Shown: positions 55,016-64,000 of the stretch, piece by piece
How positions within the stretch are numbered: position 1 is the first letter of the stretch
Layout of the letters: every line of letters begins with the position of its first letter
Origin: Candidatus Moraniibacteriota bacterium
Lineage (GTDB): Bacteria > Patescibacteriota > Minisyncoccia > Moranbacterales > UBA9337
Direction of reading: 5' to 3'
NCBI GenBank assembly: GCA_029865125.1
Contig: JAOUHN010000001.1
Span: 1,360 to 65,359 of the forward strand
DNA: 64,000 bases
The notes under the pieces: model-generated
Databases searched by the model: none
Seen by the model: the letters and a program-made list of their open reading frames with translations, nothing else
Told to the model about the DNA's origin: nothing
Program-made: the position numbers and the translations under genes

Positions 55016-55100
55016 TGGTGCCGCGGGAGAGACTCGAACTCTCACGGGTTGCCCCACCAGTTCCTAAGACTGGCGTGTATACCAATTTCACCACCGCGGC
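55016..55100 (-). tRNA. tRNA-Leu(TAG)
   Basis: GCCGCGG acceptor stem, CCAGT-CTTAGGA-ACTGG, long variable arm, TTCGAGT, encoded CCA. Confidence 0.97.
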
Positions 55101-55401
55101 GTAATAAAAACCTGGGTTCACAGGTTTTTTCAAGTACCCTACGAGTGTAATACAATTTTTCAAACTTTGCAAGAGCCCCAAATTACGAATGTATGAATGA
55201 AAGAATATAAGCATTTAGGCATAATCCTAAATTCTCAACTTCCTATCCCAATACCTGGGCAATCCGCATCACTTCTTCCTTGAGCGCCCCATCATTCTCA
55301 TATTCCCCGCTTCAAACTTCTTTTTAATCAAAAAGCAAGCGCTTGTCCTACAAAAACAAACACTTGCTATATATCACCTCCCCGAAATAAAGAACTTTCC
55401 C

Positions 55402-56223
55402 TTAATGCTTAATCGACTCAAGCCCAACGCTTTTGACCCAAAAGCCGGTCTCGTCGTCTCGTTCGATGGAAACCGTCGAACCGACATTTTCCATCGTGGC
55501 CTTCCATTTTCGAAGATCGGCATACTCCCGATCATCAAAATGGACTGGCCGACCTTCCCTTTGGGCCAGCAATGCCCGACACATCATGTCGGCTGCCAAC
55601 CACTCGGCCTGTTCCTCGAGAGTGGCCTTGGAGTACTCAATGCTCCAATGCCAGCCCTCTTGGACAAACCCAGTCAAAAGGGTCGAGGGGTCGACCTGAC
55701 CCGGGAAAAATAGCTGGGTCCTGCCAGCAAATTTTCCCGAAGTCGCTGTGACGGAAATTCCGCGATAAACGCGGATTTCGTCAAAGCCCTCAGTTAGTTC
55801 CGGCAGATTATCGGCCAACTGACTGGCCATCTGCCGAATAGTATCCTCCGGGAGGGTCGCTTTCTTGCCCTGAGCCGCCCGCTTTTGCTGGCGCTCAAGG
55901 CAAACCTCCAGTGGTGTGTCCATCAGGACCGCCACCACTCGGGAAGCATGTGGCTTTCCAGCCAGGATGTTGTCCCGACGCCATTTCCGAATAATATTCG
56001 TGGCATCAAAAACGACATCCCGGCCAGCCTTGAGACTGCCGGCAATTTCTTGCCTAGCAATCTCGAAAGCCCTGTCAGACCCAACTCGGTGCTTCACCCG
56101 AATATCATCCGGGCAAATCACCGTCGCCTCGGTTGTTTCGGCAATCCATTTCGCATGAAACGACTTGCCAGAACCGGGGATGCCGACCATGAACCAAAAG
56201 GTTGGCCCTGTCATTTCTGGCAT
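55402..56223 (-). CDS. P-loop kinase (AAA_33 / polynucleotide kinase-like) with extra C-terminal domain
   Basis: MVGIPGSGKS, ICPDDIR, VVFDATN, DTPLEVCLER, EGFD; AAGGAGG SD. Confidence 0.88.
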   Translation of the reverse strand: MPEMTGPTFWFMVGIPGSGKSFHAKWIAETTEATVICPDDIRVKHRVGSDRAFEIARQEIAGSLKAGRDVVFDATNIIRKWRRDNILAGKPHASRVVAVLMDTPLEVCLERQQKRAAQGKKATLPEDTIRQMASQLADNLPELTEGFDEIRVYRGISVTATSGKFAGRTQLFFPGQVDPSTLLTGFVQEGWHWSIEYSKATLEEQAEWLAADMMCRALLAQREGRPVHFDDREYADLRKWKATMENVGSTVSIERDDETGFWVKSVGLESIKH

Positions 56224-56430
56224 CAATCCTCCTTTTTCCAATAAACCCGGAATTTGAATTTTTATTCCAAAGAACTCCTCTCATCTTTGAAACACCAATT
56301 TATTGGTATCTCAATAATGAGTTTCAAACGCCGCGCCGTTTGAACTGATTTTAACCCTTTTTTAAATTAAAGAACTATTTACCACACGCGGGTGACACAC
56401 AAATCAGTCCTCAGACCATATTGTTCCGTC

Positions 56431-56922
56431 TCAGAAAACATGGTCGCCTCCTTCGCCATTAAAGATTCGTATTGATGAGCGAAACTCTTCTTCATCCCGC
56501 TCCTCCTCATCATCAACTGAAGGACCGACTTGCAGTCGATCCCATTCGTAGTCGGTCACGGGAATCACTGGGCGAGCATCCCAAGTGACTCTTTCTGGGG
56601 GATAGACTTCAGTCCAGATAAATTCATCATCTGGGCTGAAATCAACGAATACCACCTTATAGGTGGTTCCGTCGAATGCTACAGCCTCCACGGTTTTTCT
56701 TTTTGCCTTCACCTCCTTCCGATATAGTATATCTATATCGTCCCGATACTGTTCATGATACTCCGCCAAGAGCATTCCCTCGATAAAGGACCTCTTGACA
56801 TCTTCGTCTTCTACGGTGTAGAGGACGTGAACGGTAGCAACCGCTCTCTCATGAAAAGCACACGGGTCAAAGTCCAGCCCAAGATCGAGCATCTTCGCTA
56901 CCTGCGCAGCTATTTTGCTCAT
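56431..56922 (-). CDS. Acidic hypothetical protein
   Basis: 163-aa ORF, co-oriented, ATGA-coupled to the upstream mini-ORF. Confidence 0.7.
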   Translation of the reverse strand: MSKIAAQVAKMLDLGLDFDPCAFHERAVATVHVLYTVEDEDVKRSFIEGMLLAEYHEQYRDDIDILYRKEVKAKRKTVEAVAFDGTTYKVVFVDFSPDDEFIWTEVYPPERVTWDARPVIPVTDYEWDRLQVGPSVDDEEERDEEEFRSSIRIFNGEGGDHVF

Positions 56923-56975
56923 AAACCAGGGTTATTCTCAGTTTTAGAAACAAATGAAGCGAGCATCTTTTTCAT
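56919..56975 (-). CDS. 18-aa mini-ORF MKKMLASFVSKTENNPGL
   Basis: GAGGAGG SD 8 nt upstream; its TGA overlaps the next ATG. Confidence 0.45.
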   Translation of the reverse strand: MKKMLASFVSKTENNPGL

Positions 56976-56983
56976 AACCATTC

Positions 56984-57153
56984 CCTCCTCAGAAAATTTT
57001 GCCCAAAAACGGGCGTTAAACTTTGCTCAAAACGAGCCTTTCTGTTACGAACCTAAAACAACTTTTTTGAAATTATCTTGGGTTCGTAGCAGAAGCCTGA
57101 AAGAAAATATATGATTTTCTCGGATAAATATTTTTTGATTCAAAGAACTTTTC
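56984..57153 (-). repeat. ~170-nt structured element, copy A
   Basis: Roughly 85-90% identical (by eye) to 61740-61910; starts with boxA-like GTTCTTTG and ends at an SD. Confidence 0.92.
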
Positions 57154-57228
57154 AACTATAAGCTTTCAATAAATTCAAAAGCTTAATAATCGGCAGGAGA
57201 ACGGATCGCTGTCCATTCTCCTGCTTTC

Positions 57229-58107
57229 CTACATTCTTCTTGCTATAGCGGCCTGCCTTACCGCTAGGCTAGAGGAGGAAGAGGTCACATTGGCGAGCTC
57301 AAAGACTCGCTTCACGCACCTCTCCGCCTCCTCACGAGACAAATGCGGTCCTAGTCCAATTCCTTCGCGCAAATACCACTCGCGCGGGGATAGAAGACTG
57401 AAACCTGCATCTGCTACTTTTTCCCGCCAACCATCCTCGGGTAGAATTTCTTCGTTTTCTTTCCCGATATAATGTCGGCGTGAGGCCTCCGGCATCCATG
57501 AACTCATCCGAGCATCGCAATACCGGAGACCTTTGACCGAGATCTCGCTATATCCGAGCTTGTGTAACTCGGACAGGAATCCGAGATCGGAAACTCCTGC
57601 TATATACGGATGCGCTATTGGCAAGGCGCGCACTCCATACTCTTTTGCCAATGCGAGAGTTTCGAGGTGCTGTTGCACCGAAACTCTTTCGATTGGTAAA
57701 TGGTTGCCCGTAATCCCGACTACTAAAAACAGATTGTGATATTGGGCGAGCTGTGCCATTTGCCAACGGCTTGCCGGCCACTTTGACACTAAAGTGACCA
57801 GTTTTGTCCGGGACGCCACCTGCTCAAGAAAATATTGCAAGTAGTAGTCGATTTTTGGCCAGAGAGGATCAGTGATGGCAGTAAATCCGACAAAATCCCC
57901 CTCAAGCACTTCCCAAGGAAAGTTGAAAAAGCGACGTTCAACTTCATTGTTTTCAATGATCCAAGGTGGCACATTGATATATGTGCATGCCTTGTTGATA
58001 CCCGCCACTGGATTTTGATTCCAGACTTCACGGCGGGTATCATGCTCGGTGATGAAACAGTATTTACAAGCCACTGGGCAAGCCGGATTTCCAGCAATGA
58101 ATTTCAT
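57229..58107 (-). CDS. Radical SAM protein (SPL-like fold)
   Basis: N-terminal CPVACKYC (CxxxCxxC), FTAITDP, TLVSK, HPYIAGVS. Confidence 0.85.
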   Translation of the reverse strand: MKFIAGNPACPVACKYCFITEHDTRREVWNQNPVAGINKACTYINVPPWIIENNEVERRFFNFPWEVLEGDFVGFTAITDPLWPKIDYYLQYFLEQVASRTKLVTLVSKWPASRWQMAQLAQYHNLFLVVGITGNHLPIERVSVQQHLETLALAKEYGVRALPIAHPYIAGVSDLGFLSELHKLGYSEISVKGLRYCDARMSSWMPEASRRHYIGKENEEILPEDGWREKVADAGFSLLSPREWYLREGIGLGPHLSREEAERCVKRVFELANVTSSSSSLAVRQAAIARRM

Positions 58108-59243
58108 TTTCTGTTTCCTTTGAAAAAATTTAATAATTCAGTCGGCATACACCCAACTGAACCTTTGTTTGGATACAACTCGCTCACGCAGTACTTGCAC
58201 CCAAAACAATTATCCAGCTGACGCGCCCAGACAAACCAAGAGTTTATGCAATGAATTGACATCTTCGTCAGTTCTTGCATTTTCGTGACATGCCCGACAT
58301 CCTTTCTTGCTCCGTCCACCATACCCGGCTTCACACAAAGCGTTCCACCAAGCACGAACCGACAAAAAGTCAAATCACCAAGGGTTTCGGCATTGTGAAC
58401 CATTACTCGCGGTTGCCTTTGTACGAAACAAGTCGTGCAACACGACTGACATTCTAACCTATTGTCAGTCTGAAACCCACAGACTTGCCTTGAGGCTGGT
58501 TGGTATTCAATATCATATCCAACCTGCCTGAGCCAGATCAAAACTTCCTGATCAGGCTCAACCGGACCACATGTTCCACGTAAGGGACATCCGATCGCCT
58601 CACAGCGCACTAATTGGGGTGAGCCCCAGTATGGATTGAGTGGCTTCTCCCGTCCAGTGAGATATGAAACAGCACAGTTCACTCTCGTGAACAACCGGAT
58701 TCCGTTCTCTTTCGCAACCCGCAAAATCTGATCAAATCCAGTCATCTGTTTCACACGCAAAACCCAGTCTATCGCATTGTCAGGGTTAACCGCCTCTACG
58801 AGAGAAGCGTCTCCGCGAAATCCTGAGACACAGGCCACTTTGCATCCCACTGCCTGAAGGCGAGTGAAAATGCGATTGATTACCTCCTCACTAGTGTTGT
58901 AAGGAGGAATGAGCGGCCGCACTGCTGCAAAACATTTAACTCCTGCTTCCCGAAGATTACGGAGTGTCTCATACCGATGATCGTGTCCGACTTTTTCAAA
59001 TCCGTCAGGAAGCTCACTAATGGAAACCATCACGACAAGCCCAGAAAGATTCAAAAAAGCTAACTCGTTTGCGCGAGATGGACCAATTGATCCTTTGGTG
59101 ATAACACTCACTGGGCCAGTGTGACCCGCCTCAGCCAATAACCGCAACTTCCTCATAGTGTCCTCCCACTGCAAAGTGGGGTCACCATAGTAACAATTTA
59201 TAGATACCGGCATAGACAGCAAAGCCCTTATTATCTTTTTCAT
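58104..59243 (-). CDS. Cys-rich radical-SAM-like protein, possibly circularly permuted
   Basis: Starts at SINCYYGDP...SVITKG...VSISEL...VRPLIP (SPL-like barrel); cluster-like CFGCKYC occurs only at the C-terminus; GGAGG SD. Confidence 0.7.
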   Translation of the reverse strand: MKKIIRALLSMPVSINCYYGDPTLQWEDTMRKLRLLAEAGHTGPVSVITKGSIGPSRANELAFLNLSGLVVMVSISELPDGFEKVGHDHRYETLRNLREAGVKCFAAVRPLIPPYNTSEEVINRIFTRLQAVGCKVACVSGFRGDASLVEAVNPDNAIDWVLRVKQMTGFDQILRVAKENGIRLFTRVNCAVSYLTGREKPLNPYWGSPQLVRCEAIGCPLRGTCGPVEPDQEVLIWLRQVGYDIEYQPASRQVCGFQTDNRLECQSCCTTCFVQRQPRVMVHNAETLGDLTFCRFVLGGTLCVKPGMVDGARKDVGHVTKMQELTKMSIHCINSWFVWARQLDNCFGCKYCVSELYPNKGSVGCMPTELLNFFKGNRK

Positions 59244-59360
59244 AACGCCCTCCTGCGTCATTATTTATATCAAAGAACCTCTAACATTAAATTCTTGCGC
59301 ACAATTGCGCTTTTGGAAAAACCAATTTTGCGTCCCCAAAAGCGCAATCAAGCGCTTATT

Positions 59361-60707
59361 TTATCTTTTTGTTATCTCCTTGATAGCCAAGATGAACCTC
59401 TCAACATCCTCATTGGTATTGCACAAAGAAAATGAAGCTCTGATAAATCCCGGCACCGCGCTTTTCTTTTCGTTTTTAATATTCTCAATAATTTCTTTTT
59501 CATCTTCAATCCTTAGCAACTTTCGAATCACATTATAAACACAGAAACTTCCATATCTTACACCAATACCGAATTCACTGTTCAATCTCTCTGCAACTTT
59601 TTTTGAATTCATACCTTTGATATTAAAAGGCAATACCGTATTTAAATGCTTTTCTGATACATATAACTCAATCTTTGGATTTGATTTTAAATAATCAAAA
59701 GCTTTCTTGGTTAGTTTTTTTTCATAACTTTCAATATTTTCAATCCCAATATTTCTCAATTCTTCTAATGCATACATCATTGACACCGCTCCAACCGCAT
59801 TGGGCGTCCCAGGATCATGAGCTAGCTGATTCTTATATCTCAGAAATTCACCTTCTTTAGTTATGTATGGCAAATTTCCACCACCGATCTCATAAGAAAT
59901 AAATTTGTCAAAGAAATTTTTCGGTCCAATCAAGAATCCTCCGCCATAAGGAGCATAGAACTTATGACCCGATGCCGCCAAAAAGTCGATTCCCATTTTC
60001 TGCATATCTATTTTATGGTGTTGAATGAATTGACAAGCGTCCACAATAAAATACGCCCCGTGTTTATGAACAATTTCTCCAATTTTTTTAATATCAGGAC
60101 AATAACCGGTTGCATTTGATGAGGCGGTCAACACAAAAGCTTTGATTTTATTAGTACTCAAAATATTTTCAATACTTTTCAAATCAAATTCAAACTCATT
60201 ATTAACATCATATTGCACAACCTGCTTTCTTCCTTCTTTTTGAATTTTTTCACTAACATTATCCATTTCAGATAAATCAAACTGCTTCTTGCCTATTTTT
60301 TTAATCCCCTCAGCTTTGATCCAAGGAAGCCACGAGGAAGAATGTTCTATTCCAGAAACAGCTACTTTTCCCTCCAAAAATGAAAAATAATGTGCAGCCG
60401 CATTCATTGCACCTGTTGTATTTCCCGTAAAAACAACGTAATCGCTCTTAGGAGCATTAACAAATTTTTTTATAACATCCCTACTTTTTTCATAAATATC
60501 TGTAGAAATTTTTGATTTTATTCCTGCACCTCTATGAACAGACCCGTAACTAGATAAATATTCATCAACTTTTTTCTGAACAGCTCTAAAGGGAGGTGTT
60601 GTAGCAGCATTATCTAAATTAACATAACGAACAACCCCAAGTTTACTTGTTTCAACTTGGTAATTATGAATTTTACTCAAAAATAATTTCTTTGGATTAA
60701 TTTTCAT
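59361..60707 (-). CDS. Class V PLP aminotransferase, cysteine desulfurase (SufS/CsdA)-like
   Basis: NLDNAATT, SVHRG, EHSS..LPW, DACQ, SGHK, GTPN, VRYGSFC. Confidence 0.92.
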   Translation of the reverse strand: MKINPKKLFLSKIHNYQVETSKLGVVRYVNLDNAATTPPFRAVQKKVDEYLSSYGSVHRGAGIKSKISTDIYEKSRDVIKKFVNAPKSDYVVFTGNTTGAMNAAAHYFSFLEGKVAVSGIEHSSSWLPWIKAEGIKKIGKKQFDLSEMDNVSEKIQKEGRKQVVQYDVNNEFEFDLKSIENILSTNKIKAFVLTASSNATGYCPDIKKIGEIVHKHGAYFIVDACQFIQHHKIDMQKMGIDFLAASGHKFYAPYGGGFLIGPKNFFDKFISYEIGGGNLPYITKEGEFLRYKNQLAHDPGTPNAVGAVSMMYALEELRNIGIENIESYEKKLTKKAFDYLKSNPKIELYVSEKHLNTVLPFNIKGMNSKKVAERLNSEFGIGVRYGSFCVYNVIRKLLRIEDEKEIIENIKNEKKSAVPGFIRASFSLCNTNEDVERFILAIKEITKR

Positions 60708-60812
60708 ATAAAAAAATATTAATAATTTTCTCTTCATCTCAAATCTTATTCGTATATTTGTAAATTTGTGAAAAATTTGTAATTCATATACTAAATAAGA
60801 TCTGAGAAAAGG

Positions 60813-60846
60813 GATAGAGCAGGCAAGCGCTGTTGCGTGCTCTATC
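60813..60846 (-). terminator. Terminator-like hairpin after the DHH-like gene
   Basis: gatagagca...tgctctatc followed by cccttttc on the minus strand. Confidence 0.55.
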
Positions 60847-60895
60847 TGTTGTGAGAGAGTTTAGTTTAGGCACTCTCTCGGAAGCCTTGAAATAT

Positions 60896-61732
60896 TTATC
60901 CTTTTACAACTACCCCGGCAAACCCACGAGTGGGATTGCCATAGGCATTTCCGATCCGATTTGGGAGTGAGTTTCCCCACCCCATAAACCGATTGACGAT
61001 CTCGGGCGTCGTATGTCCGCCGAGAACAATTTTCTTGTTCCCGGTTGGGTTCCGGTCGCGATCGACATCGTCGATCATGGCAATGTAGGCCTCGCCCGTT
61101 ACCAATGCCGCCTCAGGCAGTTCATCGATTAAACCGGCCTCGCGAAGATCGCGGACACCGTCCACGACCTTTGCCTCCTGAAGCTTGTCTTTGGCCTTGG
61201 CGATAAACTCCCGAATTTTTTCTTCATCTGCCTTTTGGGCAGTTCGAGGGTTAGTGGCATAAAATGCCGCCTTCCCCTTGATGCGAAACTCTAAAAACTC
61301 CTCCGGGTCAATCCCAGAGCAACGCCCAGCATAGGCATCCGCTGGGCAATGGTCACCGGCAGCAACCAATTCCAGCTGATGAGTACGCTCCACACCAAGG
61401 ATGGCGCAAAGCTGCCCCAAGGAGGAAGCGTCCCAGTACCGGTCGGCCCCGAGACCATAACCGAAATCGCCAGGATTGTGGTGGTCGCAAATGCCAACCA
61501 CCGACATGGAGCCGGCACAGTTCGGGTTGACCTCGAATATAATTACCTGTTGAACAAGAGCGAAATCACCCTCGTCAACAACGTAACCATCTGCCTGGTA
61601 AGCATTGCCCCCGTGGACTTTCGTCCCGGAGACAGTTGCTGTGGCCAGCACACATCCCGCTTCACGGGCCACATTGCGTGCTGCTTGCTCTTCGTTATCT
61701 TGGCCACCGAAAACTACCATTGTATTTTTCAT
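60896..61732 (-). CDS. Divergent DHH-motif phosphoesterase-like protein
   Basis: GGQDNE ... ICDHH ... SSLGQL...LG ... LVAAGDH pattern; GAGGAGG SD. Confidence 0.7.
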   Translation of the reverse strand: MKNTMVVFGGQDNEEQAARNVAREAGCVLATATVSGTKVHGGNAYQADGYVVDEGDFALVQQVIIFEVNPNCAGSMSVVGICDHHNPGDFGYGLGADRYWDASSLGQLCAILGVERTHQLELVAAGDHCPADAYAGRCSGIDPEEFLEFRIKGKAAFYATNPRTAQKADEEKIREFIAKAKDKLQEAKVVDGVRDLREAGLIDELPEAALVTGEAYIAMIDDVDRDRNPTGNKKIVLGGHTTPEIVNRFMGWGNSLPNRIGNAYGNPTRGFAGVVVKG

Positions 61733-61739
61733 CGCTTTT

Positions 61740-61910
61740 CCTCCTCGGGAAATATTTGCCCAAAAGCGGGCGTTAATTTTGCTCGAAAATGAGCTCTTCT
61801 ACTACGAGCCCAAAACAACTTTTTTAAAATTATCTTGAGTTCGTAGTAGAAGCTTGAAGGAAAATATATGATTTTCTCGGATAAATATTTTTTGATTCAA
61901 AGAACTTTTC
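61740..61910 (-). repeat. ~170-nt structured element, copy B
   Basis: Direct repeat of 56984-57153, immediately upstream of the first operon gene. Confidence 0.92.
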
Positions 61911-62457
61911 TCTCTGGTCAAAATAACCAAGAGATTCTTGAGTCCAACCACAAGGATTGTTCCCAAAAATAAAAAGCTTTCCAACCGGAAAGCTTTTTGC
62001 ATGACTCTTCAAGAGAAACTAAACACGACTAAAGTCCTCGAGAAAAGTCTTGCAAGAAACCTTCCTATTCGCCTGCATTGAAGCGAAGCTTTGTCGTGTT
62101 TTAGTTGTTATCAAAATACTGTTATAATAAACTCACTATTCTTCTTCCGAAGAATGGATGATCCGCCTATCTTTTTAGATCCTGTATTAAACAGGCTCCA
62201 TAGCCGGGACCAGTCCATTCATCGCAATGGATGAATAAATTGTAGGGTTACCGGGTTTCGGAATAGCCCGAGATCAATTGAACTTTGTCAATCACTATCT
62301 CAAACTGAGACACCACCCGGATTTTTATGAACTATCCTCTGCATTGAGAGGAGGTGATCTTTTAATATCACTGGATTGAAACTTATTATTCTAAGATTCA
62401 ACACCGCTAATATCAATGTGACTGCCTGTTGCCATAACTGTTTTTCTCATCTTGACT
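61911..62457 (-). ncRNA. Candidate long structured leader / ncRNA (~550 nt)
   Basis: No credible ORF; run of hairpins (aaaaagctttcc/ggaaagcttttt, attcttc-GGAA-gaagaat, tcctct/agagga, attcatc/gatgaat) between promoter P2 and the first gene. Confidence 0.55.
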
Positions 62458-62461
62458 CATT

Positions 62462-62490
62462 ACTATACCATAGCTTTACAAAATTGTCAA
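62462..62490 (-). promoter_or_regulatory. Sigma70 promoter P2, TTGACA-N17-TATAGT with extended -10
   Basis: Reverse complement ttgaca attttgtaaagctatgg tatagt. Confidence 0.8.
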
Positions 62491-62670
62491 TAGTTTGTGA
62501 ATGCATTTGACTATCTATCCTACTTTGGCTTAATACGGCCCTTTGTTCAGGAAGCATTCTGTCACAATGCATTCACAAATATTTGACACTATGTTTTCCA
62601 CTTAATTATCAATGTTCTTTTGTTCTCTTAATCACCCAGCCCTTACTGCCTTTTCTCATCTTGACTAGTC

Positions 62671-62699
62671 AGTATAGCATGCTATCACAATATTGTCAA
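62671..62699 (-). promoter_or_regulatory. Sigma70 promoter P1, TTGACA-N17-TATACT with extended -10
   Basis: Reverse complement ttgaca atattgtgatagcatgc tatact; same 16-nt start region as P2. Confidence 0.8.
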
Positions 62700-62792
62700 T
62701 ACCCTGTGACTGCTTTTTCCAACATTTCAGTATTATGGCTTAAATTAGGCTTATATCTCATTTTATTTTGCTTTAAAAATATTCACGATTGT

Positions 62793-62821
62793 TTGACAAT
62801 AGGCAAAAACAAGAGTATAAT
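62793..62821 (+). promoter_or_regulatory. Consensus promoter TTGACA-N17-TATAAT for the TrmB-like gene
   Basis: ttgaca ataggcaaaaacaagag tataat. Confidence 0.85.
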
Positions 62822-62928
62822 AGAAGCATAACTTATTTTCTTTCTATATAAGCGCCAAGTAAGACTCCCCATTAAAAAGCACTGTCAAAGAGTCACGTTT
62901 ATATAAAAATAGCCAAAAAAACAAAATT

Positions 62929-63717
62929 ATGTATGAAAAAATCCTGTCCGTTGCCGGACTTTCCCCAAAAGAAGCCGAGATATATGAAATTCTCCTAAAT
63001 ATCGGACAAGCCGAAGCAAGTGAGATATTCAAGCAAACTACCTATAAAAGAGGTTTATTATACAAGATTTTAGAGCAACTTATCGAAAAAGGGCTAATTG
63101 TTAAAATAGAAAAACCCCGCAAACCGGCCGTTTTCAGGGTAGAGCATCCCAACAAAATAACCGAGATGCTTGATTTGCAAGCACAAAAGGTAACTTACTA
63201 CAAAAAAAGTATTGAGGATTTGATGCCGCAGCTGATTTCCAACTATAATTTAGCCTTTCATAAGCCTGGAATCAGGTTTTTTGAAGGAAAAGAAGGCGTG
63301 AGAAGGGTTCTTGATGATACCCTCACCGCCAAAGAAACTATTTATACCTATGTTGACATGGAAGCCATTGTCGAACATATCAATGACATAAACAAGGCTT
63401 ATGTCAAAAAAAGAGAGAAATTGGACATCAAAAAAAAAGGAATCGTTCTAGACTCCCCTTTTACCCGAAAACTACTCAAGAATTATCATACTAGTGTCAC
63501 TGACACCAGATTCATGGACCACACTAAATATTCCTTCAGCTCTATAATGCAGATATATGACGACCGCGTTGCTTATATCTCCCTATCGGAAGATAGCTTC
63601 ACTTCAATCATCATCCAAGACAAAAACATTTATCAAATGCACAAACAAATCTTTGAATTCAACTGGCAAAATGCCAAAACCTATGAAGAGCTTACGCCTC
63701 TTTCTAAAGCGCAATAG
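62929..63717 (+). CDS. TrmB-family transcriptional regulator
   Basis: GLSPKEAEIY..LL..G...AS.I......RG..Y.IL..L..KGL winged HTH; P.IRFFEGKEG; IYDDRVA; IF...W. Confidence 0.92.
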   Translation: MYEKILSVAGLSPKEAEIYEILLNIGQAEASEIFKQTTYKRGLLYKILEQLIEKGLIVKIEKPRKPAVFRVEHPNKITEMLDLQAQKVTYYKKSIEDLMPQLISNYNLAFHKPGIRFFEGKEGVRRVLDDTLTAKETIYTYVDMEAIVEHINDINKAYVKKREKLDIKKKGIVLDSPFTRKLLKNYHTSVTDTRFMDHTKYSFSSIMQIYDDRVAYISLSEDSFTSIIIQDKNIYQMHKQIFEFNWQNAKTYEELTPLSKAQ

Positions 63718-64000
63718 ACACTCTTCTGGTCCTGGCTAAAAAAATATCTCGTGATCACAAAATGCTTCTTGTTCACCAACTCGTCAAGAAGCTTTCTTGT
63801 TTCATTTTCCCCAATGGGAAGAAACAGCACCATCCTGGAATCATCTTCGTTGTATGCATTCCCAAGATTATTTTGCATATGATATTCGGCAACATCTGCC
63901 TGAGACATCTTCTTGAAAAAATAATCCTTGCCCTGTCGTTCTTTTGCAAGACTAAATGTATATTCCCCCTCATACTCATATGCTCTAGTGGCCACAAATC
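63681..64000 (-). CDS. 3' end of a hypothetical protein (partial, runs off the window)
   Basis: Frame open to the window edge; convergent with the TrmB-like gene and overlapping its end. Confidence 0.5.
   Translation of the reverse strand, partial: FVATRAYEYEGEYTFSLAKERQGKDYFFKKMSQADVAEYHMQNNLGNAYNEDDSRMVLFLPIGENETRKLLDELVNKKHFVITRYFFSQDQKSVYCALERGVSSS

Follow-up and report, generated by a model that had tools for sequence, protein, structure and literature searches.

The 64,000-nt stretch of the Candidatus Moraniibacteriota genome analysed here (the window) contains an array of six genes on the minus strand that diverges from a gene for a TrmB-family regulator. Embedded in the array is a three-gene unit, or trio, encoding a SufS-type cysteine desulfurase and two radical S-adenosylmethionine (SAM) proteins, rSAM1 and rSAM2. 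The locus combines an uncharacterised enzyme module with the recurrent array of variable genes that surrounds it. Our preferred reading, to which we give a probability of about 60%, is a platform with swappable cargo in which a three-gene module of proposed chemistry is nested as a passenger. The trio is conserved and mobile, and nothing in the searched libraries and papers matches it; TrmB, the promoters and the leader that follows them belong to a generic variable-cargo platform. The host genome measures 1.03 Mb at ~37% GC and is 92% complete. The genes of the locus are as follows.

62929-63717, plus strand: TrmB-family regulator, head of the array platform (Pfam TrmB, E 5e-12)
60896-61732, minus strand: DHH-superfamily protein of 278 aa, passenger cargo (DHH motif and fold match)
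59361-60707, minus strand: SufS-type cysteine desulfurase, trio gene 1, AT-rich (Pfam Aminotran_5, E 5e-78; inferred start at 60707)
58104-59243, minus strand: rSAM1, circularly permuted radical SAM protein of 379 aa, trio gene 2 (C-terminal CxxCxYC and two extra Cys sets)
57229-58107, minus strand: rSAM2, radical SAM protein of 292 aa, trio gene 3 (canonical CxxxCxYC)
56919-56975, minus strand: 18-codon mini-ORF, ATGA-coupled to the 163-aa gene (from the sequence)
56431-56922, minus strand: orphan of 163 aa, passenger cargo (no library match)
55402-56223, minus strand: AAA_33/PNK-like P-loop kinase with a C-terminal domain, passenger (Pfam AAA_33, E 5e-20)

Much of this layout was anticipated in a preliminary description made from the sequence, including the six co-oriented open reading frames (ORFs), their divergence from a TrmB-like regulator and the elevated GC content of five of them. 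GC content is 0.47-0.55 in these five genes, as compared with 0.33 in the desulfurase gene and 0.38-0.40 in trmB and gyrA. The strong GGAGG Shine–Dalgarno (SD) sequences it described lie upstream of the DHH-like, rSAM1 and kinase genes. Two ATGA couplings had also been described; the rSAM1/rSAM2 junction is the only one between two real genes, whereas the other joins the mini-ORF to the 163-aa gene. The mini-ORF is preceded by a strong SD and could be either a leader peptide or a frameshifted start of the orphan gene.

The linkage of the trio was established from 76 loci gathered with an rSAM1 alignment from genomes, metagenomes and viral contigs, which merge to 57 at 95% identity. Of these, 52 contain rSAM2, 49 the desulfurase and 46 both; of the 11 incomplete loci, eight end ~1.4 kb or less from rSAM1 and three are viral and lack the desulfurase. 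The hosts are Patescibacteria, a Micrarchaeota bin, bins labelled Proteobacteria and large phages, and rSAM1 is found in two of 301 genomes of the host's own order. The three genes show correlated pairwise identities (Spearman 0.62-0.76 over 43 loci) and broadly congruent trees in which some partners have been swapped; at L002 and L079 the usual SufS is exchanged for one of a different subfamily that retains the catalytic Cys. The PLP-lysine (pyridoxal phosphate, SGHK-type) motif and the RxGxxC cysteine of the desulfurase are present in 43/43 loci. Gene fusions join SufS to rSAM1 (P0322, P0329), rSAM1 to rSAM2 (P0332) and an adenylate-kinase-like (ADK) nucleoside monophosphate (NMP) kinase to rSAM2 (P0248, P0255).

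Two observations on these loci are recorded here in their own right. Third-position GC content (GC3) of both radical SAM genes exceeds that of the neighbouring desulfurase by 0.2-0.6 at L001, L017, L018, L023, L026, L036-L038, L042 and in the window, and no such gap is seen at other trio loci. Viral loci L088, L089 and L123-L125 have the order cupin, rSAM1, adenylate-kinase-like gene, rSAM2, with no desulfurase. A search of GenBank phages gave no match for rSAM2 or for the unpermuted viral relative.

The other array genes do not share this linkage. Of the 57 loci, none has the window's DHH family or its 163-aa gene, one has its kinase and 11 have TrmB within 8 kb; reciprocally, 29 loci of the window's DHH family include no trio, with TrmB nearby in five. 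The 163-aa gene is present in one of the 301 genomes, its own, and has no Pfam, PHROG, PADLOC or NCBIfam match. These counts bear directly on the earlier suggestion that the six genes form one dedicated, inducible pathway with its own TrmB regulator and regulatory RNA. That model takes account of the co-orientation of all six genes behind one promoter pair and of the recurrence of DHH genes and kinases beside the trio, but it does not explain why the same type of TrmB and promoter drives unrelated cargo in 19 other regions, why the leader is not conserved, or why terminator-like hairpins and repeats split the gene string into units. We regard a six-gene pathway as very unlikely. The neighbourhood comparison supports the co-occurrence of the trio but not of the window's DHH gene, 163-aa gene and kinase, which do not travel along. 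The 163-aa gene and the kinase are probably unrelated cargo, whereas the DHH-like gene may be an interchangeable helper of the trio.

The platform itself is recurrent and its cargo variable. TrmB relatives (E<=1e-20) occur in 169 of the 301 genomes; 20 regions upstream of the best matches were fetched, one was too short and was dropped, and 19 were compared. An extended -10 sigma-70 promoter faces away from TrmB in 13 of the 19 regions, and the co-oriented cargo ORFs behind TrmB differ between genomes. The first cargo gene of one array is orthologous to the window's DHH gene, and in two the C-terminal domain of the window's kinase is a separate gene; small ORFs of arrays L173 and L185 share 28-36% identity with this part of the kinase. 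No Pfam family was assigned to 43 of the 55 cargo proteins scanned (of 60). The GC content of the first cargo gene averages 0.49 (range 0.35-0.61), given as absolute values not set against host GC.

The promoters and leader lie between trmB and the DHH-like gene.

62793-62821, plus strand: sigma-70 promoter site for trmB (12/12 consensus match)
62651-62717, minus strand: promoter P1 with start-site repeat (site 62699-62671; 11/12, extended -10)
62442-62508, minus strand: promoter P2 with start-site repeat (site 62490-62462; 11/12, extended -10)
61911-62455, minus strand: structured non-coding leader, a mosaic of hairpin blocks (fold z -6.2; short blocks shared)

P1 and P2, correctly recognised before as tandem near-consensus promoters, sit in copies of a 67-nt repeat that are 76-79% identical, and a P1-like promoter/start block is also found behind TrmB in relatives. 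The leader spans ~720 nt from the second promoter to the first ATG and is structured, as had been described: the fold of 61900-62460 has z = -6.2, with none of 100 shuffles equally good. A terminator scan places a terminator-like hairpin at its end (61971-61998, 65 nt before the first boxA-like motif described below), so a single transcript over all genes is not a given. The further proposal of a dedicated RNA control element in the leader gained no support. As one whole unit it is not conserved in 60 relatives, seven of which share short blocks only, and its matches to relatives and to contigs C28 and C3 of the same genome are likewise short blocks. The Rfam scan of 54-64 kb gave nothing near gathering score apart from a tRNA, and a scan of 8 + 13 related loci gave no riboswitch. 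We therefore rejected a conserved riboswitch: the leader folds well, but it is a mosaic without an Rfam match and is not conserved as a whole. Separately, the TrmB-headed array at L002 contains a hammerhead-ribozyme-like core (L002:6610-6651; Rfam 31 bits, sub-threshold), and the leader of the TrmB-headed array L094 has a hammerhead-like core by pattern only.

Within the array, the genes are separated by hairpin modules, several of which carry a boxA-like motif.

61725-61910, minus strand: 5' head module, copy 1, with boxA-like motif (61897-61906), long hairpin and SD (repeat; z -7.3)
60708-60895, minus strand: 3' tail module of two hairpins, reused (look-alikes in C28 and in relative G002; z -4.1)
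59262-59360, minus strand: hairpin spacer with boxA-like motif 59270-59279 (z -6.4)
57154-57228, minus strand: 3' tail hairpins after the trio (z -7.8)
56968-57153, minus strand: 5' head module, copy 2, with boxA-like motif 57140-57149 (repeat of copy 1)
56267-56376, minus strand: gene-less hairpin unit flanked by two boxA-like motifs (z -4.7)
55334-55368, minus strand: terminator-like hairpin closing the array (terminator scan; z -3.4)

The head module is a 186-nt direct repeat that precedes the first and fifth genes, with copies 83-87% identical. Folding is strong after each gene (z -3.3 to -7.8, 8/8 spacers tested), and head and tail blocks are reused within arrays, between arrays and on contigs C28 and C3. 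Five AGTTCTTT-type motifs (RGTTCTTTRR) lie on the transcribed strand within 56267-61906, and seven in the whole window. The preliminary description includes neither the direct repeat nor these motifs nor the hairpin spacers. In the first 6 kb of the 19 arrays, the motif RGTTCWTTDR occurs 20 times in sense and five times in antisense, as compared with 4.8 +/- 1.9 (maximum 10) expected from 100 shuffles for the 20 sense copies; the motif was derived from the window and a few leaders, two of them among the 19, and the genomes are kin. With the window included, 21 of 23 sense copies lie outside ORFs, which cover 60% of the sequence. Platform architecture, cargo turnover and motif bias are thus direct observations. 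The same spacer blocks, with short or GC-rich cargo and no TrmB in view, also build further arrays on C28 and C3:4780-8600 (both G000 contigs).

The way in which blocks combine raises the question of whether the GTTCTTT motif is a site-specific crossover for a recombinase acting in trans, as in an integron, rather than a Nus site. Head and tail modules recombine in varied pairings at the motif, a gene-less unit (56267-56376) lies between two copies of it, and of 140 alignments of shared blocks 27 have an end close to it, where shifted controls give 10.2 +/- 2.9. This enrichment is partly expected, however, because the motif is itself shared sequence, and the remaining 113 of 140 blocks end away from it, many at start or stop codons. 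The core of an integron attC site is GTTRRRY; the motif here is GTTCTTT, and its spacers belong to several unrelated families with no single att-like site. No tyrosine integrase was found in the ORFs of 50-64 kb, and no integrase in the locus or the 55 scanned cargo proteins, a genome-wide integrase search not having been made. We consider an integron-like array improbable.

Gene shuffling by recombination has been proposed for the PeSL regulatory cassettes in hyperplastic regions of T4-type phages (PMC2839356, PMC4122927). In the available text of these sources, PeSL modules of a strong sigma-70 promoter plus stem-loop repeat between non-essential, unrelated ORFs, and stem-loops repeat here too. 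The present locus differs in that it lies on a cellular chromosome of the candidate phyla radiation (CPR), with near-consensus promoters at the head only, beside TrmB, and with internal modules that carry a boxA-like motif in place of the promoter expected between ORFs of a PeSL array.

The motif resembles boxA, whose gamma-proteobacterial form is GYTCTTTAANA (PMC5725501, as far as its available text goes). The array motif is 1-2 mismatches from this consensus and occurs on the transcribed strand in non-coding RNA. Unlike the boxA of rrn and suhB, as represented in the same available text, it is repeated between protein genes, is distinct from the motif in 16S leaders of relatives and occurs in a genome where Rho was not found. 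A NusB gene is present. According to the accessible part of PMC13753749, the rrn complex also interferes with intrinsic termination. Many 16S leaders of relatives show a related motif with a CTTTRA core, and in L141 and L192-L215 a recurrent GAACTTTGACAA/AAACTTGACAA motif lies 150-280 nt before 16S; the latter is likely a lineage-specific boxA.

A model for the platform can be built on these features. One or two strong sigma-70 promoters facing away from TrmB would drive a string of interchangeable genes under TrmB control, each gene being flanked by hairpin head and tail modules that can be reused and that meet at the boxA-like motif. The cargo would most likely be swapped by recombination between the repeated modules, and the motif would most likely recruit NusB/NusE, allowing RNA polymerase to read through the hairpin-rich transcript or to fold it. 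If confirmed, such a platform would explain where ultra-small bacteria store and swap their accessory genes; it would also widen the role of boxA and the Nus factors to arrays of protein-coding genes, in genomes in which no Rho was detected.

The two radical SAM proteins of the trio differ in architecture. rSAM2 has the N-terminal CxxxCxxC and partial TIM barrel of the superfamily, and C10, C14 and C17 of its CxxxCxYC are invariant in 55 sequences. Its model (predicted local distance difference test, pLDDT, 96) fits radical SAM structures at Z 10-11.5 and matches spore photoproduct lyase (SPL), PFL-AE, SkfB, NifB and viperin equally well (Z 10.9-11.5), with SPL in the top row. The earlier assignment of two radical SAM proteins stands, with the qualification that rSAM1 has the barrel fold (model pLDDT 91; PFL-AE Z 10.8, NifB 9.8, SPL 8.9) but lacks the canonical N-terminal CxxxCxxC. 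The rSAM1 family instead has CxxCxYC at residues 346-352, near the C-terminus, and the protein begins at the xDP strand; the N-terminus of the model aligns only past the cluster loop of radical SAM barrels. In unpermuted relatives (P0337 and viral L090) the same CxxCxYC segment is N-terminal, and rSAM1 residues 329-370 (42 residues) align with P0337 30-81 (98%) and residues 3-310 with P0337 80-392 (100%). By this sequence comparison, rSAM1 is a natural circular permutation. Two further invariant Cys sets (C190/C214/C219/C225 and C265/C269/C272) suggest auxiliary metal sites.

Comparison with known families places both proteins at a distance. The SPL-like families (SPL 4fhc, PA0069 NF033668, Rv2578c NF038135) and DUF1848 have a radical SAM partial barrel and xDP motif as here, but rSAM1 differs in its CX2CX2C spacing and extra Cys sets, and scores far below cut-offs, with weak matches to PA0069 and Rv2578c. 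Both proteins are 10-14% identical to SPL, and neither Pfam nor NCBIfam gave an SPL model match at the thresholds used. A Foldseek comparison of rSAM1 with viral models returned generic radical SAM rows only. DUF1848 was rejected as an assignment for rSAM1 (1.5% probability against a fetched DUF1848 protein). That DUF1848 member has CxxxCxxC near its C-terminus and, together with a broader group of permuted CxxxCxYC proteins, gives permutation some precedent. P0357, P0365, P0367, P0372 and ~20 more belong to a broad set of permuted radical SAM proteins, ~310 aa long, in which CxxxCxYC is C-terminal and Pfam gives no match. The trio is a compact, cloneable and uncharacterised radical-SAM pathway with a permuted core, CX2CX2C spacing and extra Cys sets, retained by organisms that shed most biosynthesis.

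Genes that neighbour the trio suggest the type of product. In 13 of the 57 loci, members of six other families with a DHH motif are found no more than 2.5 kb away; a domain homologous to the C-terminal part of DHH proteins is fused to the desulfurase in nine, and an adenylate-kinase-like NMP kinase gene adjoins it in seven. The recurrence of DHH-superfamily genes and nucleotide kinases makes a nucleotide-related product, as first suggested, plausible. The DHH label of the 278-aa protein is itself upheld in part. It has invariant D12, E14, D83-H84-H85 and D127, with the acidic metal ligands and DHH/DHHA1 fold of the superfamily (template modelling score 0.59-0.60 to DHH/DHHA1 and RecJ models), but no Pfam DHH match. 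Motif 1 is DxE; the consensus in DHH proteins is DxD. A PDB sequence search with the DHH alignment gave chance matches only, and no member of the family was confirmed in viral contigs. One homologue, in L092 (Absconditabacterales), looks broken under code 11, a result to be expected were TGA recoded in that lineage.

Radical sulfur chemistry on a nucleoside or nucleotide is, by analogy, the chemistry that we consider most likely for the trio, although at somewhat less than even odds. The desulfurase would give sulfur via an auxiliary Fe-S site of rSAM1, which would insert it into the nucleoside or nucleotide; rSAM2 would perform a second radical step, interchangeable NMP kinases and DHH phosphoesterases would set the phosphorylation state, and the product would act in conflict with phage or host. 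Precedents come from PMC12691670 and PMC9092360, in their available parts: in albomycin AbmM/AbmJ/AbmG and Photorhabdus thmABC, a radical SAM enzyme and nucleoside kinase also share a compact cluster, radical SAM sulfur insertion into nucleosides alongside a kinase is known (PMC12691670), and the Fe-S cluster of AbmM is the sulfur donor. It is this analogy with the albomycin and 4'-thiothymidine clusters that favours sulfur insertion over plain Fe-S supply. The available text of PMC12691670 describes no dedicated desulfurase in the thionucleoside clusters, whereas the trio includes one; here, in addition, rSAM1 is permuted with CxxCxYC and the hosts are CPR, DPANN and phages, with the comparison made by fold only.

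A cysteine desulfurase is also the sulfur source in the mobile Dnd/Ssp DNA phosphorothioation modules, and the PADLOC 2.0 scan gave DndA/SspA matches and weak CasR helix-turn-helix matches only, with no full defence system. In contrast to Dnd/Ssp, no other Dnd or Ssp component is present here, and the partners are radical SAM proteins. NCBIfam gave no family match for the trio, the desulfurase missing the SufS cut-off (TIGR01979; 244 bits versus 475), and no description of the trio or the platform was found in the literature searched, subscription journals and bioRxiv supplements being outside its reach.

Alternatively, the desulfurase may only build Fe-S clusters for a cluster-hungry rSAM pair, which would itself repair or modify DNA or RNA in the manner of SPL and give a sulfur-free product. 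The top rank of SPL for rSAM2 (Z 11.5; PFL-AE, SkfB, NifB and viperin tie with it to within 1), the weak PA0069 and Rv2578c matches of rSAM1, the viral loci that lack the desulfurase and the prevalence of small-genome lineages among the hosts are consistent with this role. A dedicated Fe-S supply would be less expected in a genome that owns a separate desulfurase/IscU pair (a second class-V PLP enzyme adjoins the IscU gene on contig C64), and no scaffold gene recurs with the trio loci; identity to SPL is just 10-14%, and the NMP kinase fusions point toward free nucleotides. We view Fe-S supply as a tentative alternative that is unlikely on balance.

Several observations weigh against the swappable platform with a sulfur-inserting passenger. 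The motif count of the window is circular, since the window helped define the motif. The strict array motif is found in 0/25 16S leaders of relatives, which have the GAACTTTGACAA-type motif instead, and the search for Rho in this 92%-complete genome found none; together these weaken a classical antitermination role. Some hosts can do without the desulfurase, since viral loci L088, L089, L090 and L123-L125 have both rSAMs but no desulfurase and ~10 unpermuted relatives from large phages stand alone. Four of the 19 arrays, which lack the trio, include DHH-like genes among their cargo, a rate similar to that beside the trio, which makes adjacency by itself a weak indicator. AbmM matches the rSAM2 model at Z 7.6, rank 39, the likeness to AbmM/ThmA being judged by fold; the C-terminal CxxCxYC of rSAM1 is a predicted cluster site at which binding is inferred; and no SAM synthetase was found in the genome. 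Taken in its fullest form, the proposal would be an integrase-free, TrmB-controlled cassette array of Patescibacteria with rRNA-style promoters and boxA punctuation. It would draw on a pool of GC-rich genes that phages also carry, exchange them at the motif and hold, as one of its cargoes, a new radical-SAM pathway in which a permuted CX2CX2C enzyme and its partner make a sulfur-containing nucleotide directed at phage or host. That this whole combination is correct seems doubtful.

The downstream boundary of the array is marked by a tRNA gene.

55016-55100, minus strand: tRNA-Leu(TAG), boundary only (Rfam match; relatives keep rpsO-NYN-tRNA)

In six loci from relatives, rpsO, the NYN gene and tRNA-Leu stay linked and the genes upstream of the tRNA differ, so the array is no fixed neighbour. 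An attachment site at the tRNA was rejected, since the array is on its 5' side and no duplicated tRNA end was found. On the other side, a 550-aa gene on the minus strand, convergent with trmB, runs from window position 63681 to 64000 and on to G000:C69:66692. Its homologues flank TrmB in L143, L144 and L147, and large AT-rich homologues close six arrays, one with a weak GNAT match.

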